Shown here piece after piece: positions 1,641-62,230 of a DNA stretch of 64,000 bases; positions within the stretch are counted from its first letter, which is position 1; each line of letters opens with the position of its first letter. The stretch is taken from sequence record KT454806, one strand, 5' to 3'. A model generated the notes under the pieces. It was not told where the DNA came from. It made no database searches and saw only the letters and a list, made by a program, of their open reading frames with translations. The position numbers and the translations under genes were made by a program. The DNA comes from Escherichia phage SUSP2.

Positions 1641-3107
1641 ATGGCAGAAATTACAGAAACACAAGAAAGCCTACCTCCATTCAGAATGGGTGAGGTTGGG
1701 AGCCTTGGTTTAAAGGTTCGTGGTGGAAGAATCTACGAAGAACCTAGACAAGCTTTAAGGTTCCCAGAAAGTATTAAGACTTTCCAACTGATGATGCGTG
1801 ACCCTGCTGTAGCAGCATCTGTAAACATTATTAAGATGTTTGTTAGAAAAGTCAACTGGAGATTTGTTCCTCCGAAGGGAAAAGAACAAGACCCTAAGAT
1901 GATTGAACGAGCAGACTTCTTTAACTCTCTGATGGATGACATGGAGCATGATTGGGCTGACTTTATTAACTCTGTAATGTCATTCTGTACTTACGGATTC
2001 TGCGTGAATGAGAAAGTTTACAAGAAGCGTCAGGGTAATAAAGGGAAATACCCTTCAAGATACAATGATGGTTTAATTGGTTGGGCTAAACTCCCTATCA
2101 GAAACCAGTCAACTCTTGATAAATGGTATTTTGATTCAGACTATCGAAAAGTAACAGGTGTTAGACAGAATCTGAGAAACGTTTCACACATTGCTGGAGC
2201 TATTAATCTGGCTGAACAGCCACTAACAAGAAAGCTTCCAAGAAGTAAATTCTTGCTGTTCAAATATGATGATGAATACGGTAACCCAGAAGGTCGTTCA
2301 CCATTACTCAATGCTTATGTACCTTGGAAATATAAAGTCCAAATTGAAGAGTATGAAGCAGTTGGTGTTTCCAGAGACTTAGTAGGTATGCCGAAGATTG
2401 GTTTGCCACCTGATTATCTGGATGAGAATGCTGAACCTGAAAAGAAAGCTTTCGTAGAATACTGCAAATCTGTAGTTAATGATATGATTGCAAATGACCG
2501 AGCAGGTTTAATCTGGCCTAGATTTATCGACCCAGAAACTAAAGAGGATATCTTTGAGTTCTCATTAGTATCTAGACAGGGTGCAAAGGCTTACGATACC
2601 GGAGCTATTATTGACCGCTATTCTAAGCAGATTATGATGGCATTTATGTCAGACGTTCTTGCAATGGGTCAGTCAAAATATGGTTCATTCTCTTTAGCAG
2701 ATTCTAAGACAAGTTTACTTGCAATGTCTGTAGACATTCTTCTGAAACAAATCAGAAACGTAATTAACCGTGACCTAGTAGCACAGACTTACGCTCTGAA
2801 TATGTGGGATGATGAAGAACACGTTCAAATCGTTTATGACGACATTGAAACTCCAGACCTTGAAGCTATCGGTGCTTATATTCAGAAGACCGTTGCAGTT
2901 GGTGCTATGGAAGTTGATAAGGAACTGTCTAACAAGCTTAGAGAGCACATTGGCTTACCTCCTGCTGATGAGTCTCAACCTGTGTCTGAAGAATTGTCTC
3001 CGAACACGCAAAGTCGTTCAGGTGATGGTTATAAGACTGCCGGAGAGGGAACTGCGAAGACCCCTTCAGCAAAAGACCCAAGTACAGCGAATAAGGCAAA
3101 TAAATAA
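1641..3107 (+). CDS. Portal protein
   Basis: About 490-aa ORF directly after terL, start ATG at 1641 with AGGTGAG RBS; position and size typical of portal. Confidence 0.65.
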   Translation: MAEITETQESLPPFRMGEVGSLGLKVRGGRIYEEPRQALRFPESIKTFQLMMRDPAVAASVNIIKMFVRKVNWRFVPPKGKEQDPKMIERADFFNSLMDDMEHDWADFINSVMSFCTYGFCVNEKVYKKRQGNKGKYPSRYNDGLIGWAKLPIRNQSTLDKWYFDSDYRKVTGVRQNLRNVSHIAGAINLAEQPLTRKLPRSKFLLFKYDDEYGNPEGRSPLLNAYVPWKYKVQIEEYEAVGVSRDLVGMPKIGLPPDYLDENAEPEKKAFVEYCKSVVNDMIANDRAGLIWPRFIDPETKEDIFEFSLVSRQGAKAYDTGAIIDRYSKQIMMAFMSDVLAMGQSKYGSFSLADSKTSLLAMSVDILLKQIRNVINRDLVAQTYALNMWDDEEHVQIVYDDIETPDLEAIGAYIQKTVAVGAMEVDKELSNKLREHIGLPPADESQPVSEELSPNTQSRSGDGYKTAGEGTAKTPSAKDPSTANKANK

Positions 3108-3607
3108 TGGCTGAAGTTATCTCTATTTCAAATGCTACACGAGTGCATTCGTATAGAGGTGTTCTGGTTATTACTGATACGTTATCTGTAGAGGCTGGCT
3201 CAAGGGTCAGCCTTTCAGGTTATGTAAGTGATGGTGGAACCTCTAACGTTTTCACTATTTGCAGGTTACTTGATGCTCCAATGAACGGAAATTCGTTTAT
3301 TTCAAACAATTGTAGCGAAATTGTTAAAATTCCATTTGACAGTTCATGCCTTTTGGGTGTAAAGTTATATAACTGTGAGAATAAACGTATAAACGTTAAT
3401 AGCGTTGAAGCTGCGTTCATTACCATTGACACAGCATTTCAATCCCCAATGACAGTAAATAAAGAGTCTAACAGACTTGAGTACATTTTTTCACAAAATG
3501 ATTACAAAGTACTTGTCAAAGGTAAAGTATATGATATGATTGTAAATGTGGTGGATGAATCTGGTAACCATTCAACAGTCCTTAAACAGAAAGTAAGGTT
3601 CAATTAA
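3107..3607 (+). CDS. Hypothetical protein, Cys-rich
   Basis: ORF start overlaps portal stop (ATGG); no recognisable motif. Confidence 0.4.
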   Translation: MAEVISISNATRVHSYRGVLVITDTLSVEAGSRVSLSGYVSDGGTSNVFTICRLLDAPMNGNSFISNNCSEIVKIPFDSSCLLGVKLYNCENKRINVNSVEAAFITIDTAFQSPMTVNKESNRLEYIFSQNDYKVLVKGKVYDMIVNVVDESGNHSTVLKQKVRFN

Positions 3608-22963: not shown

Positions 22964-23161
22964 ATGCCGACTATCCTAGCAATCCTCTTAAAAAACTTGG
23001 GTAGCTTCCTCTGGAAACTTCTACTTTCCCTTCTGAGTGAATACATGATTGAGAAAGCCTTCTTCAGACTTGCAAGATACCTTGCGAGTAAGACAGATAC
23101 GCCTATTGATGATGAATTTGTTAATAACTTGGAAAAAGCCTTTAAAGGGGAGAAAGAATGA
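22964..23161 (+). CDS. Small membrane protein (holin-like or lysis/superinfection regulator candidate)
   Basis: 65 aa, N-terminal hydrophobic helix, charged C-terminus; GAGGTGA RBS. Confidence 0.4.
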   Translation: MPTILAILLKNLGSFLWKLLLSLLSEYMIEKAFFRLARYLASKTDTPIDDEFVNNLEKAFKGEKE

Positions 23162-23532
23162 AGTGGTTAGAGGATGCTTTCAAAAATAACATTGGTGCAA
23201 TTGTTGTGGGTATCTTCAGTGTAATTGGTATGTACACTACAATGCAGGTGTCTAGTGGGAAGCAGGAAGTTTCCGTTTCGACAAAGTTACAACAGCTAGA
23301 TAGTTACAACAAAAGCAACTATTCAGCTATTCGTGATTTACAGTCTGACATGAAACTCCTGCAATTAGGTATGGAGAACCAGAAGGTTCAGCTAGAGAAC
23401 GTAAAGGGTGAAAACGCCAAGTTGACTAAAACCCTTGATAAATTCTCTGACAGTGTTAACAACCTAGCACAGTCTGTATCAGCTTTGCAAGCAATCACTG
23501 AACAGAATACTCAAAATGCTAAGAAAAAATAA
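23158..23532 (+). CDS. Membrane-anchored coiled-coil protein
   Basis: 124 aa, N-terminal TM segment then coiled-coil; start overlaps upstream stop. Confidence 0.4.
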   Translation: MKWLEDAFKNNIGAIVVGIFSVIGMYTTMQVSSGKQEVSVSTKLQQLDSYNKSNYSAIRDLQSDMKLLQLGMENQKVQLENVKGENAKLTKTLDKFSDSVNNLAQSVSALQAITEQNTQNAKKK

Positions 23533-58588: not shown

Positions 58589-59698
58589 ATGACTACTAAA
58601 ACTAAAGCACAAATCGACGCAGAAATCTATGCACTGGTTCAGGAAGGTAAACTGACCAAAACTGCCATTGCAATGAAGTATAACACTTCTACTCGTTCCG
58701 TTGGTCGTGCTGTAGAACGTCACGAAGCAACACTGAAAGGTGCTAAGAAAGCAACTTCCAAGCCAGCTAAACAGACTCTGAAACAGATTGCAAAGTCTGC
58801 TAAGAAGACGTCTACTAAGCCAGTTGCCAAGGCTGTTAAAGAGGCAGTGAAGAAAGAACCTGTTAACCAACTGCACGAAGCAATGCAGAATGGTAACCAG
58901 ATTGAGTACATGATTACTGGTGATTCTGTTATCATGACTTTCGGTGCAGATTCTGAAATCGTTGAGTCTACCCATCCGAACTATAAAGAAATCGTGATGG
59001 CTGTTGTAGGTGGTGAGTACAAGAAAGCTTTCGAACTGATGAACATTCGTAAGTCTATTGAGAACTTCACTCAGGGTGCAATCACCATCAAAGGCGATAA
59101 CCTGTACTACGGTGCTGTTCAAATGCGTTCCACTCTGGTAGACCGTATTCTGGATATGATGAAAGCTGGCGACGATGGCTTTAAACGTCTGGTAGCATTC
59201 TTCGAAAAACTGATGGAAAACCCATCCAAAGATTCTGTAGAACAACTTTGGGGATTTGTATCCCACCTTGACGTTGAGATTGATGAAGAAGGTTATATCA
59301 TCGGTTGGAAGAAAGTTACAACTCGTGGTGGTAAGCTGTTTGACTCCCGTACCTGCAAAGTTCCTAATGATTTGGGTAACGTTGTAGAGATGCCACGCTG
59401 GATGGTTGATAATGACCGTACAGTAACTTGCTCTCAAGGTCTGCATGTTGGTGCTTGGGATTATGTCCGTAGCTTCTCTGGTGACACTATCCTGAAAGTT
59501 CGTGTACATCCACGAGACGTTGTATCTGTACCAACTGACTACCAAGATATGAAAATGCGAGCTTCCCGTTATGAAGTTGCAGCAATTGTGAATGGTCAGC
59601 GTCAGGTTGTCAAAGAGTGGGATGGCAAATCTGAAGCACTGCATGTTGTTGTAGGCACTGCTGGTGAACTGATTTCTCAGCGTAAACGTGAAATCTAA
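58589..59698 (+). CDS. rIIB: rIIB-like protein
   Basis: Multiple blocks recalled from T4 rIIB (LVDRILD, ENPSK, CSQGLHV, VHPRDVVSVP-DY-D-KMR). Confidence 0.75.
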   Translation: MTTKTKAQIDAEIYALVQEGKLTKTAIAMKYNTSTRSVGRAVERHEATLKGAKKATSKPAKQTLKQIAKSAKKTSTKPVAKAVKEAVKKEPVNQLHEAMQNGNQIEYMITGDSVIMTFGADSEIVESTHPNYKEIVMAVVGGEYKKAFELMNIRKSIENFTQGAITIKGDNLYYGAVQMRSTLVDRILDMMKAGDDGFKRLVAFFEKLMENPSKDSVEQLWGFVSHLDVEIDEEGYIIGWKKVTTRGGKLFDSRTCKVPNDLGNVVEMPRWMVDNDRTVTCSQGLHVGAWDYVRSFSGDTILKVRVHPRDVVSVPTDYQDMKMRASRYEVAAIVNGQRQVVKEWDGKSEALHVVVGTAGELISQRKREI

Positions 59699-59798: not shown

Positions 59799-60350
59799 AT
59801 GAAGAAGTTCATTTTAGGTTTGTGCTTATTCTTAACAGCACATTTGGCAGTCGCTTCAGACTGTCCAGAATTATCCATCAGTCAGAAAACAAACATGCTT
59901 AAAGCTTATCACTACGGTGAGAAAGAGATGGGTAAAGGTTGGGGATTAACCTTAGCCGCTATAGCCTTACAAGAGTCAGAGTTAGGTCTTCGTCTTGAAA
60001 ATAAAAAGACTCACGATTATGGATTGTTCCAGAATCACTTGAAGACTGTTGTAAAGCGTAACAAAGTTAGCCCAAGCGTAGCTAAGAAGAAACTTATCAG
60101 AGACTTCAATTATGCTGCAAAGGAGACACACAAAGAGCTTCAGTTCTGGACTAAGGTTCATGGTAATCCTAATGGGAAATACTCTTTACAGCGTGTCTTA
60201 GCTTCATATAATGCAGGGTACTCATACCGCATTCCAAAAGCTAGACAATACTCTCAAGATGTGTACAATAACATGAAGGTGCTTGCTCAATGTGAGTTTG
60301 CAACAAACATCAAAAAGGTTAAACATGAGCGAATTAAAACAATTGGATAA
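59799..60350 (+). CDS. Secreted lytic transglycosylase (SLT domain) with signal peptide; endolysin candidate
   Basis: Signal peptide MKKFILGLCLFLTAHLAVA; SLT motifs QESELG, GLFQ, SYNAGYSY. Confidence 0.55.
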   Translation: MKKFILGLCLFLTAHLAVASDCPELSISQKTNMLKAYHYGEKEMGKGWGLTLAAIALQESELGLRLENKKTHDYGLFQNHLKTVVKRNKVSPSVAKKKLIRDFNYAAKETHKELQFWTKVHGNPNGKYSLQRVLASYNAGYSYRIPKARQYSQDVYNNMKVLAQCEFATNIKKVKHERIKTIG

Positions 60351-61020
60351 GGTATTTTGTCACGCTTACGATATCAATCCTCTGGCTATAGATATCAGTG
60401 CTGCAAGCTGGACAGACCTTATGAAAGAAGACTTTGCAGATACTGCAAGGGCTGTTGAATGTGACTTCAAAGATTTTCATTCATCTGCTGAAACAGTTCT
60501 CTGTACAGACCTTCAAACAGGTAAGTCAGTATCAGTTAAGCGTGACAGCTTAATCTTGGTTGCAAAAGACCTTGATATGAAGAAGCCAATGGTTTTAACA
60601 GATATTGATGGCGTTCTCACTAAGTTTGATAAGCCAACAAACTCAACGTATCTGGAAGATGGAACTCTGTCACAGTATACAAACTTGATTGAGTCAGTTG
60701 ATGCACAACCTACGTACATCTTTAACATCATTTCAGGCATTCACAAGAGTGCTGCAATCGGTGTTTTAACTGCTCGTGGTGAGTCTCAACGTGTACCAAC
60801 TCATTTGTTTATTGATAAACACATTGTAACTGACTACATGCTCTTTATGCGTGGTTTTGGTTCAAACAGAATCAGTGCAGAAAGTTTGAAAGTTCGTATG
60901 ATTCAGTCTTGCATTCTTCCGTACTATGATGTAGTATGCTTTATAGAAGATACAGTAAAGAATGTTGAGAAGGTTAAACGAATCCTTCCAGACATTAACA
61001 CAATGCTTATCAAACACTAA
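60325..61020 (+). CDS. HAD-like hydrolase (possible nucleotidase/phosphatase)
   Basis: DxDGV motif (LTDIDGVL); ATG at 60325 overlapping upstream gene end. Confidence 0.35.
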   Translation: MSELKQLDKVFCHAYDINPLAIDISAASWTDLMKEDFADTARAVECDFKDFHSSAETVLCTDLQTGKSVSVKRDSLILVAKDLDMKKPMVLTDIDGVLTKFDKPTNSTYLEDGTLSQYTNLIESVDAQPTYIFNIISGIHKSAAIGVLTARGESQRVPTHLFIDKHIVTDYMLFMRGFGSNRISAESLKVRMIQSCILPYYDVVCFIEDTVKNVEKVKRILPDINTMLIKH

Positions 61021-61032
61021 GAGAGAGAAATC

Positions 61033-61497
61033 ATGCAAAACATTATTACAGTAGCTATCGACGCATCAGCAAACAAATCACAGGTTGTTCGTGATATCAT
61101 TAAAAGCAACTTTGATGGCAAAATCTTTCGTGCTGTCAACGTAAAAGTGGATGGTGATATCCGTGAATATCGTGCTTTGCTGAACGTGTCAAAACACGTT
61201 AAAGGTGTCGGTTCTACTACAGCACATAAAGAAAACCTGATGACCATCTATGATATGGGTATGGCTTCAGAGTTGGGTGCTAAAGGAATTGTACAGTCCG
61301 GTGCTCCGTACCGTTCTTTCAATCTGGAAACTGCTCTTATGCTTTCCTTTACAAGTGGTTCACAAACTACCACGTATCTCTTTACTGATGCTGCAACGGT
61401 ATCTGCCATTAAGGATAGCACTATCAAGGCTGGCGTAGCTGCTGCTGCAAAAGCTTCAACGATGGCTGCAAATGTCCTTGCTAAAGTCCTCGGTTAA
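61033..61497 (+). CDS. Hypothetical protein
   Basis: 154-aa ORF with RBS, followed by terminator. Confidence 0.45.
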   Translation: MQNIITVAIDASANKSQVVRDIIKSNFDGKIFRAVNVKVDGDIREYRALLNVSKHVKGVGSTTAHKENLMTIYDMGMASELGAKGIVQSGAPYRSFNLETALMLSFTSGSQTTTYLFTDAATVSAIKDSTIKAGVAAAAKASTMAANVLAKVLG

Positions 61498-61509
61498 GGT
61501 TATGATACA

Positions 61510-61531
61510 GGCTCCTTCGGGAGCCTTTTTC
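61510..61531 (+). terminator. Rho-independent terminator (UUCG loop)
   Basis: GGCTCC-TTCG-GGAGCC followed by TTTTT. Confidence 0.65.
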
Positions 61532-61719
61532 GTTTTAGGAGATTGTATATGTACAAAACATATTTGATAACAGTCGTCATAAAGGGTGTTGAAATTACCC
61601 TCCCAATGGCATCTAAAACTACTTGTGAGGTAGAGGCTTTGCAAGAGTTAGTTGAGCAAGCTGAATTACTTTATCCACAAGCTGAATTTGTTTATCCAGC
61701 AGTGTAGAGGATACTAAAA

Positions 61720-62067
61720 ATGACATTTAAAGAGTTCTGTCAAGCCGCTTTCATAGTTGTTTTTCTGATTGGTGTAGGTGTTTGGGGCGGTTATTCTTAT
61801 AAGGATTACCAAGTCACTCAGACAGAATTGACTAATCAGAAGCTTATAAGCGTTGCTAAGGATGCTTACCAAGAAGGTTTAGCAAATCTTAGCTCCAATT
61901 ATAAAAATGATTTGAAAGATGTGCTTGCTAAAAACAAACACACAAAAGAGGTATTGACATATGAGAAGACTAAGCCAGAGTTTTATAACATTTGTGCTAC
62001 TGATACTTATGTCAGGGTGTTCAATGAACAAAGTGAACTCTACGTTCAAAAACTCCCAAGTAAGTGA
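61720..62067 (+). CDS. Inner-membrane spanin candidate (Rz-like)
   Basis: N-terminal TM anchor FIVVFLIGVGVWGG followed by helical periplasmic domain; contains embedded lipoprotein ORF. Confidence 0.45.
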   Translation: MTFKEFCQAAFIVVFLIGVGVWGGYSYKDYQVTQTELTNQKLISVAKDAYQEGLANLSSNYKNDLKDVLAKNKHTKEVLTYEKTKPEFYNICATDTYVRVFNEQSELYVQKLPSK

Positions 62068-62230
62068 AAGTGATAAGTACACTCAAGAAGAATCACGCTA
62101 TGTTGTCAAGGGCAATACAGGCACAGACCTGTCACAAGCCCTTGAATTTTATCGTGATGGGTACTATCAATGTACGATGAAAGCCAATAATTTAATTGAT
62201 ATGATTTTGTTAGGGAATAAGCAGCAATGA
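61961..62230 (+). CDS. Outer-membrane lipoprotein spanin candidate (Rz1-like), overlapped architecture
   Basis: Lipobox LMSGC after hydrophobic signal; AAGAGG RBS; starts inside the Rz-like gene in another frame. Confidence 0.4.
   Translation: MRRLSQSFITFVLLILMSGCSMNKVNSTFKNSQVSESDKYTQEESRYVVKGNTGTDLSQALEFYRDGYYQCTMKANNLIDMILLGNKQQ

Follow-up and report, generated by a model that had tools for sequence, protein, structure and literature searches.

Two overlapping genes at positions 61720-62230 of the window, by which we mean the whole 64-kb stretch of DNA analysed, very probably encode a two-component spanin of a FelixO1-like coliphage acting by the lambda-type mechanism. We give this reading a probability of about 0.9, the function being proposed from topology, gene arrangement and analogy. 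The window is that of a FelixO1-like myophage (Ounavirinae, Suspvirus-like), and the spanin pair is already known and curated. The class of two-component spanins is taken here as defined by Summer 2007 and Kongari 2018: its genes are adjacent and embedded, overlapped or separated, with the o-spanin placed downstream or in frame +1, and membership is judged by this arrangement together with an inner-membrane i-spanin, a lipoprotein signal in the o-spanin and periplasmic cysteines. In function, the class stands for a physical complex of both subunits needed to disrupt the outer membrane, recognized by a lysis defect when divalent cations are present and by its ability to complement lambda Rz/Rz1 nulls. 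At our locus, an i-spanin gene of 348 nt and an o-spanin gene of 270 nt overlap by 107 nt, the latter in frame +1. The sequence-only reading had proposed such an overlapped pair from a 115-aa ORF with an N-terminal transmembrane anchor, within which an 89-aa ORF starts in another frame, carries a lipobox LMSGC and possesses its own AAGAGG ribosome-binding site (RBS). Each of these elements was recovered, and the arrangement as a whole is upheld by GenBank labels, by the ‘ovl’ geometry of SpaninDB, by the match to PHROG 1152, by selection in both frames and by its conservation in distant phages. The features of the locus are as follows.

61720..62067, + strand: i-spanin gene, 115 aa (ATG 61720 to TGA 62067; PHROG 1152; homologs)
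61961..62230, + strand: o-spanin gene, 89-aa precursor, 70-aa mature predicted outer-membrane lipoprotein of about 7.5 kDa (ATG 61961 to TGA 62230; homologs; selection in the o-frame)
61961..62067, + strand: overlap of 107 nt (i-spanin frame 0, o-spanin frame +1)
61706..61711, + strand: Shine-Dalgarno-like AGAGGA for the i-spanin, overlapping the TAG stop of an inserted 52-aa ORF
61946..61951, + strand: o-spanin Shine-Dalgarno AAGAGG, located within the i-spanin coding sequence, 9-nt spacer to the ATG
61735..61800, + strand: i-spanin transmembrane anchor, about residues 6-27 (Kyte-Doolittle peak; SpaninDB periplasmic start; low-confidence AF2 helix, unbroken over residues 3-71)
61993..61995, + strand: codon of i-spanin C92, its sole periplasmic Cys (invariant in alignments A2 and A5)
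62006..62023, + strand: o-spanin lipobox L-M-S-G-C20 with Ser at +2 (PROSITE PS51257 rule; C20 and S21 invariant in alignment A3)
62171..62173, + strand: codon of o-spanin C71, sole periplasmic Cys of the mature protein (invariant in alignments A3 and A4)

The o-spanin begins 241 nt into the i-spanin gene, and the overlap encodes the 35 C-terminal residues of the i-spanin as well as the signal peptide and linker of the o-spanin. The i-spanin RBS is spaced like that of its partner, with 9 nt from GAGG to the ATG. An AGAGG motif with equal spacing is recorded by SpaninDB for the o-spanins of Felix01, JH2 and Moogle (PMC6139136).

The hydrophobicity of the i-spanin peaks at residues 6-24 (FCQAAFIVVFLIGVGVWGG) with a mean of 2.01 (Kyte-Doolittle, 19-residue window), and the periplasmic domain of the Felix01 i-spanin starts at residue 28 (SpaninDB, PMC6139136). 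The protein is predicted to have type II topology in the inner membrane: a short N-terminus leads into one N-terminal transmembrane domain (TMD), followed by an 88-aa, largely alpha-helical periplasmic domain. It matches PHROG 1152, ‘Rz-like spanin’, with E=2e-38; it agrees with its CHB7 homolog at 100% identity and with the SpaninDB entry for the Felix01 i-spanin at 86% over 115/115 residues, and tblastn returned full-length matches in 364 records. Among the aligned homologs, G24, C92 and the motif EK..P.F.N.C....Y...FN show little or no variation. C92 lies within this motif (EK-x2-P-x-F-x-N-x-C-x4-Y-x3-FN), is invariant in alignments A2 (7 sequences) and A5 (27 sequences) and aligns with a Cys of the Kuravirus i-spanin homolog.

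The o-spanin N-terminus reads MRRLSQSFITFVLLILMSGC followed by SMN, the lipobox Cys being Cys20 (codon 62018-62020). According to the PROSITE PS51257 rule, a lipoprotein signal has basic residues within the first seven positions, an uncharged core and the pattern [LIVMFWSTAG]2-[LIVMFYSTAGCQ]-[AGS]-C, with the Cys at position 15-35. The o-spanin complies with it and lipidation is predicted. There is no Asp, the residue of Lol avoidance, at position +2, so that sorting to the outer membrane by Lol is expected. For comparison, the lipobox of the JH2 o-spanin is recorded as MSGC (SpaninDB, PMC6139136). The six frames of the 64-kb window contain 634 Met-initiated ORFs that reach 50 aa or more, and of these the o-spanin alone satisfies PS51257. 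However, the lipobox by itself is weak evidence because shuffled windows give such ORFs fairly often (13 in 30 shuffles, about 0.4 per 64 kb).

Over 89/89 residues the o-spanin shares 85% identity with its JH2 counterpart in SpaninDB, and full-length tblastn matches were obtained in 309 phage records, with identity from 99% down to about 29%. In the aligned homologs, little or no variation affects C71, the lipobox Cys with its Ser at +2, or the motif LE[FY][YW]RD.[YF]..C....N[NG]LID. C71, which belongs to this conserved motif (LE-[FY]-[YW]-R-D-x-[YF]-x2-C ... N-[NG]-L-I-D), aligns with a Cys of the Kuravirus o-spanin, as C92 does in the other subunit.

Structure models were used cautiously and for secondary structure alone, pLDDT being 58.5 and 57.2 for the two subunits. 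In the low-confidence AF2 model of the i-spanin (alignment A5), a helix runs from residue 3 to about 81 and is followed by a loop with C92 and by a helix at 95-111. The o-spanin model (alignment A4, 18 sequences), of low confidence as well, displays a disordered linker at 19-43 and helices 54-75 and 78-87 around C71, which would form a C-terminal helical hairpin. The secondary structures of both subunits agree with the Jpred figures of SpaninDB: helix makes up 66% of the Felix01 i-spanin, and helix and strand account for 20% and 16% of the o-spanin (PMC6139136).

Stronger evidence than the lipobox that the two ORFs are genes comes from the pattern of substitutions among five phages. The 511-nt locus was compared between the window, mistaenkt, Moogle, Michonne and GEC_vB_B1 (10 pairs), in which it is co-linear and devoid of indels. 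In the segment belonging only to the i-spanin, the i-frame reading leaves 62% of changed codons synonymous, versus 11-15% for the other two frames; in the segment belonging only to the o-spanin, the share is 63% in the o-frame versus 4-5% in the other two. Outside the overlap, both codon-position and synonymous bias match the respective frame. Within the overlap no frame dominates (28% and 32% synonymous), and nucleotide identity there exceeds that of the two other segments in 7 of the 10 pairs; balanced synonymous shares and high identity are consistent with dual coding. These comparisons indicate that both frames are under purifying selection. The overlap encodes the conserved C-terminal motif of the i-spanin, and the other frame holds there only the o-spanin signal peptide and a variable linker; such a division of constraint between the frames seems sensible.

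The same data bear on the start of the o-spanin. One could imagine that the 89-aa ORF is not translated from 61961 and that a shorter, non-lipidated protein is made from Met17 or Met22, or no protein at all. Gene calls of 68 aa and 73 aa are indeed common in public records, and the 9-nt Shine-Dalgarno spacer is at the long end of the usual range. Nevertheless, Met1 is invariant in alignment A3, whereas Met17 is replaced by Ile in Moogle and Met22 by Thr in most relatives. Moreover, the Shine-Dalgarno sequence, the basic n-region, the hydrophobic core and the lipobox Cys are kept down to 30% identity, and the dual-frame constraint in the overlap also argues for the upstream start. The short calls themselves correspond to a documented behavior of gene callers, which systematically shorten overlapped o-spanins or fail to find them (196 unidentified, 64 given a wrong start; Kongari et al., PMC6139136). 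We consider a start other than 61961, or the absence of a product, to be very improbable. Other public records call the o-spanin ORF ‘hypothetical’ or omit it. The main value of the present analysis lies in correct annotation, this being a textbook overlapped o-spanin of the kind that gene callers truncate or miss.

The pair belongs to a known family. Its nearest relatives, Enterobacteria phage CHB7 and Escherichia phage mistaenkt, two members of Suspvirus that GenBank places in Ounavirinae, share about 97% nucleotide identity with the locus; identity is 80-86% for the relatives listed from Felixounavirus, Mooglevirus and allied Ounavirinae phages. In the GenBank records of Moogle and Michonne, the two genes are labelled i-spanin and o-spanin and agree with ours in start and length; the mistaenkt and GEC_vB_B1 records carry the same labels but truncated o-spanin starts. 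Both subunits are also named in the Moogle paper. SpaninDB lists overlapped (‘ovl’) two-component spanins for Felix01, FO1a, UAB_phi87, wV8, JH2, Moogle, Mushroom, EC6 and FSL_SP-010/012/107 (PMC6139136). Its FelixO1-type entries have, exactly as our locus, a 348-nt i-spanin gene (115 aa) and a 270-nt o-spanin gene (89 aa) in frame +1 with an AGAGG Shine-Dalgarno motif, and one periplasmic Cys per subunit (PMC6139136). An overlap of 107 nt is given in its Table S4 for Felix01, FO1a, wV8, Moogle and FSL_SP-010/012 (PMC6139136).

The pairs of FelixO1 (p014/p015), JH2, wV8, Moogle, Michonne and Mushroom are therefore of the same family as ours, the ‘JH2’ i-spanin family of SpaninDB (PMC6139136), in which grouping is set at no less than 40% identity over at least 40% of the length; with 86% and 85% identity over full length, both subunits lie well within it. 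They share the 115/89-aa sizes, the 107-nt overlap in frame +1, the AGAGG Shine-Dalgarno motif, a MSGC or ISGC lipobox, one periplasmic Cys per protein and a proline-free o-spanin, with amino acid identity of 79-100%. The sole difference concerns the upstream context, where the window carries a 170-nt insertion with the 52-aa orphan ORF. FelixO1-like phages are widely used in Salmonella and E. coli biocontrol.

More distant relatives keep the same organization. In Erwinia phage Pistou (Kolesnikvirus), the i-spanin homolog spans L003 1281-1637 and its partner 1501-1776; Pectobacterium phage Wc4 has its i-spanin homolog at L004 1269-1628, and its o-spanin runs from a GTG at 1501 to 1776; and in the Kuravirus podophage VTCCBPA_211 they occupy L011 2444-2794 and 2679-2939. 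In each of the three, the o-spanin begins in the +1 frame within the 3′ part of the i-spanin gene, and the TMD, the lipobox with Ser at +2 and both periplasmic Cys are kept at 24-35% identity. Ahead of the o-spanin start, Pistou and Wc4 have the SD-like motifs GAGGG and AGGAG. Profile comparison by hhalign with the Kuravirus pair gave probabilities of 99.3% for the i-spanin and 98.8% for the o-spanin. The Kuravirus pair (phiEco32-like phages, e.g. NJ01 and VTCCBPA_211) shares with ours the +1 overlap, the C-terminal motifs, the cysteines and a site outside a lysis cassette; it differs by its 24-35% identity, an overlap of 116 nt, prolines in the o-spanin linker and its podovirus host genome. 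Since this identity is below the 40% threshold of SpaninDB, the Kuravirus pair would fall outside the FelixO1 (JH2) family there. The profile and architecture comparisons nonetheless identify FelixO1-type and Kuravirus-type pairs as one remotely homologous module. Its unity is a mildly useful addition, as are the conserved C-terminal motifs and single cysteines, which point to the likely subunit interface.

Prolines vary within this module. The o-spanin contains none in its 89 aa, as the sequence-only reading had remarked, and none is found either in JH2, Moogle and Michonne. The Erwinia, Pectobacterium and metagenomic relatives have 3-4, located in the linker and in an IPYNG motif. Complete absence of proline is limited, among the sequences compared, to the Felixounavirus/Suspvirus/Mooglevirus clade, and its loss is a derived trait of the clade, since distant relatives carry 3-4. 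On the other hand, the same reading had described the o-spanin as unusually long, and this did not hold: its 89 aa are close to the median, 92 aa, of the 68 other overlapped o-spanins whose length is shown in the portion of SpaninDB Table S3 that was covered, and these extend from 65 to 167 aa.

The label ‘Rz/Rz1-like’ given earlier to the pair is appropriate as a functional and topological analogy, not as membership in a sequence family. With a cut-off of E<=0.01, neither protein hit any family of Pfam-A, and thus there is no match to the lambda Rz or Rz1 families, whose models we take to be PF03245 and PF06085, and a scan of NCBIfam gave sub-threshold noise alone. What is shared with lambda is the predicted topology of both subunits, an o-spanin read in frame +1 of the i-spanin gene from a Shine-Dalgarno sequence of its own, periplasmic cysteines suited to homodimer disulfides, and the presumed function in membrane fusion. 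The differences are nevertheless substantial. Lambda Rz1 is fully embedded in Rz, whereas our genes overlap partially; it has 60 aa with a functionally essential penta-proline stretch, in a proline-rich region known to be mutationally sensitive, whereas the o-spanin here has 89 aa and no proline. Rz has 153 aa and two coiled-coil domains, whereas the i-spanin here has 115 aa and Pepcoil predicts no coiled coil in its Felix01 homolog (SpaninDB Table S3, PMC6139136).

Homology with the T4 spanins PseT.3/PseT.2 was looked for and not detected, hhalign giving 1.5% for the i-spanin (TMD alone) and 7.2% for the o-spanin (lipobox alone). The T4 proteins are of similar size (117 and 99 aa in the RefSeq annotation), and the T4 o-spanin likewise has predicted secondary structure and no proline-rich region. 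In both phages the pair is one gene away from the polynucleotide kinase gene and outside any lysis cassette. [quoted passage not shown] In view of this lack of homology, the common nearness to polynucleotide kinase is attributable to coincidence or loose synteny and not to common descent.

The neighborhood of the pair and related features of the window are the following.

58589-59698: rIIB-like gene
59799-60350: signal-peptide SLT-like protein
60283-61020: polynucleotide kinase
61033-61497: 154-aa protein with no assigned function
61509..61536, + strand: intrinsic terminator of the 154-aa gene (7-bp G+C-rich stem, TTCG loop, T-run)
61549-61707: 52-aa orphan ORF on a 170-nt insertion, between the ancestral spanin RBS and the i-spanin start
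62227-62230: ATGA in which the ATG of an 89-aa ORF 3′ of the o-spanin overlaps the o-spanin stop
23158-23529: homolog of the holin annotated in mistaenkt

The spanin locus is situated among early-type genes (rIIA, rIIB, polynucleotide kinase) and is not part of a lysis cassette. For the lysozyme-type lysin of mistaenkt the 64-kb window contains no counterpart because the gene falls in the part of the genome beyond it. The SLT-like neighbor gave no match in a PDB sequence search. A scan for sigma70 promoters yielded no more matches than in shuffles; one candidate, TTGCTA-17-TATGAT at 61478-61506, has a -10 element TAnnAT invariant in the five phages of alignment A1 and is not claimed as a promoter.

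Several observations could be held against a spanin: besides this location, they are the lack of Pfam or T4 homology, the coiled coil not predicted in Felix01, the o-spanin without a proline-rich region and the low confidence of the AF2 models. In another reading, both genes exist but the lipoprotein has no part in a spanin, being for instance an outer-membrane lipoprotein of superinfection exclusion or receptor masking, of the T5 Llp or Cor type; the 115-aa protein would then be unrelated and the overlap a result of genome compaction. The early-type surroundings and the missing proline-rich region would suit such a lipoprotein, and so would the best PHROG of the o-spanin, phrog_4180 (E=2e-47), which is unnamed and labelled ‘unknown function’, phrog_456 ‘Rz-like spanin’ being matched weakly. 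We also found in the literature no experiment on FelixO1-type spanins concerning lysis phenotype, lipidation or complex formation, and this too leaves space for a different function. The location itself, however, is no argument against a spanin since the T4 spanins likewise lie near pseT among early genes, and in Wc4 the pair directly follows an annotated endolysin gene (L004 794-1261). Moreover, the two genes stay together in +1 overlap at 24-35% identity across Ounavirinae myophages and Kuravirus podophages, and such retention across distant morphotypes is as expected of a two-subunit machine. Each partner also has a single invariant periplasmic Cys near its conserved C-terminal motif, in line with the disulfide-linked dimer pattern near-universal for spanins (Kongari et al., PMC6139136). 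Finally, the o-spanin is the sole PS51257 lipoprotein candidate that the 64-kb window offers. We regard an unrelated lipoprotein as quite improbable and retain the two-component spanin.

How the spanin would work can be proposed by analogy. Topology signals, a separate o-spanin RBS, selection in both frames, co-inheritance of the genes and conserved single cysteines could be demonstrated directly by sequence comparison, and the later steps are modelled on lambda Rz/Rz1 (Young laboratory work, summarised in PMC6139136). After export through the Sec pathway, the o-spanin would receive its lipid on Cys20 and be processed by signal peptidase II, and the Lol system would then carry it to the inner leaflet of the outer membrane; the i-spanin would be inserted N-in/C-out in the inner membrane. 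Each subunit would homodimerize by a disulfide between its single invariant periplasmic Cys, C92 in the i-spanin and C71 in the o-spanin. This disulfide is predicted from the finding that each is the sole periplasmic Cys of its protein, and at least one periplasmic Cys for intermolecular disulfides is present in 507 of 528 spanin systems (Kongari 2018, PMC6139136). The C-terminal regions would bind each other, ...EKTKPEFYNxCxTDxYVRVFNEQ... on the i-spanin side and ...LEFYRDGYYQC...NNLIDMIL on the o-spanin side. The resulting complex may cross the periplasm through the peptidoglycan mesh and be held in the murein until the endolysin acts. Once the murein is removed by the holin and endolysin encoded elsewhere in the genome, the complexes would be free to move and to change conformation, and would fuse the inner and outer membranes as the last step of lysis.

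We also envisage, as an unlikely combination, that the FelixO1/Kuravirus-type pair is a structurally distinct spanin solution with another subunit interface than lambda Rz/Rz1 and that, separately, the 52-aa ORF alters spanin expression or timing in this phage. The features that may characterize such a solution are the short i-spanin, the Felix01 homolog without a predicted coiled coil, the proline-free o-spanin and the modelled C-terminal helical hairpin with its single Cys. Concerning the upstream region, the terminator at 61509-61536, which directly precedes the ancestral spanin RBS, is kept in mistaenkt, Moogle, Michonne and GEC_vB_B1 (alignment A1) and is an annotated terminator in Michonne. 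Homologs of the inserted 52-aa ORF were found in one other phage record only, and alignment A1 indicates that the RBS now serving the i-spanin is supplied by the 170-nt insertion.

Directly upstream of the overlapped spanin genes (i-spanin 61720-62067, o-spanin 61961-62230, both +), the window carries a 170-nt insertion, placed exactly between the ancestral RBS of the i-spanin gene and its ATG. The elements of this region are the following.

61478-61506, +: candidate sigma70-like promoter, TTGCTA-17-TATGAT
61509-61526, +: conserved terminator hairpin, followed by a T-run (region to 61536)
61537-61541: ancestral i-spanin RBS, AGGAG
61547-61716: 170-nt insertion
61549-61707, +: 52-aa ORF (MYKTYLITVV...) inside the insertion

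The insertion is missing in the relatives mistaenkt, Moogle, Michonne and GEC_vB_B1, and among 50,697 phage records it has one other carrier only, vB_EcoM_IME338 (98.9% at the nucleotide and 100% at the amino acid level). The ancestral RBS now serves the inserted ORF, for which PHROG, Pfam and NCBIfam gave no match, and the new i-spanin RBS, GAGG, comes from the insertion itself.

Since only ~10 nt separate the terminator hairpin from the ancestral spanin RBS, there is no space for a promoter between them. In the sigma70-like candidate preceding the hairpin, the TAnnAT positions of the -10 element are invariant in 5 phages. Transcription from this site would start within the hairpin's 5′ arm, and RNAs begun there might escape the terminator. 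As the promoter scan as a whole stayed at chance level, we consider this candidate simply as a lead.

The neighbourhood of the pair echoes that of T4, where a polynucleotide kinase gene also lies one gene away from the spanins (T4 locus L010, 6003-7782; window, 60283-62230). The T4 order is alc, pseT.3, pseT.2, pseT.1, pseT, whereas that of the window is polynucleotide kinase, a 154-aa gene, i-spanin, o-spanin, and no homology is detectable between the spanins of the two phages. On the downstream side, an ATGA at 62227-62230 makes the start of the next gene overlap the o-spanin stop codon. This gene encodes 89 aa and belongs to phrog_4391, to which no function is assigned. The annotations of Moogle and Michonne show an identical 4-nt overlap at this place, which suggests that expression of this conserved gene would be translationally coupled to that of the spanins.

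Two further loci of the window carry the following ORFs.

59799-60350, +: 183-aa SLT-like protein (signal peptide and sub-threshold Pfam match)
22964-23158, +: 65-aa membrane protein ORF, phrog_402, abutting the next
23158-23529, +: 124-aa homolog (99%) of the gene annotated as 'holin' in mistaenkt

The SLT-like gene stands three genes upstream of the spanins, or four with the inserted 52-aa ORF. Its product starts with an apparently cleavable signal peptide, MKKFILGLCLFLTAHLAVAS, and matches the SLT lytic transglycosylase family in Pfam at E=3.6e-4, under the gathering score; it falls in phrog_600 (no function assigned) and is without a sequence relative in the PDB. Records name it variously, as 'endoribonuclease' in mistaenkt, 'lysin' in GEC_vB_B1 and 'lysozyme-like domain' in Michonne. 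Possibly this protein is an additional muralytic enzyme, one that is exported. The 124-aa holin homolog, which has one base in common with the phrog_402 ORF, displays a single N-terminal TMD and then an extended polar tail in which Gln, Lys and Leu are abundant; this layout also recalls an i-spanin or a T4 T-type holin. Its family, PHROG 4038, has no function attached, and the holin label in the FelixO1-like phages appears to stem from annotation transfer.

Public annotation of the o-spanin is also uneven (examples: public-record loci L001 3855-4061 and L006 1573-1770; proteins P0006 and P0010-P0022). In the databases, many entries are N-terminally shortened to 68-73 aa, with starts at internal Met17 or Met22 that cut off the signal peptide, and in several phages, such as Pistou and Wc4, the ORF has no annotation at all. 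One comparative paper describes vB_Si_DR094 as having 'only the i-spanin', probably another case of this artefact. In the Kuravirus-like Escherichia phage Bas86 (PQ850622), the homologous 'Rz-like spanin' CDS (locus L012, 2480-3372) is annotated as two joined pieces, and the gap between them holds an HNH endonuclease ORF (2953-3303); an intron-like mobile element thus seems to split the i-spanin gene of this phage.
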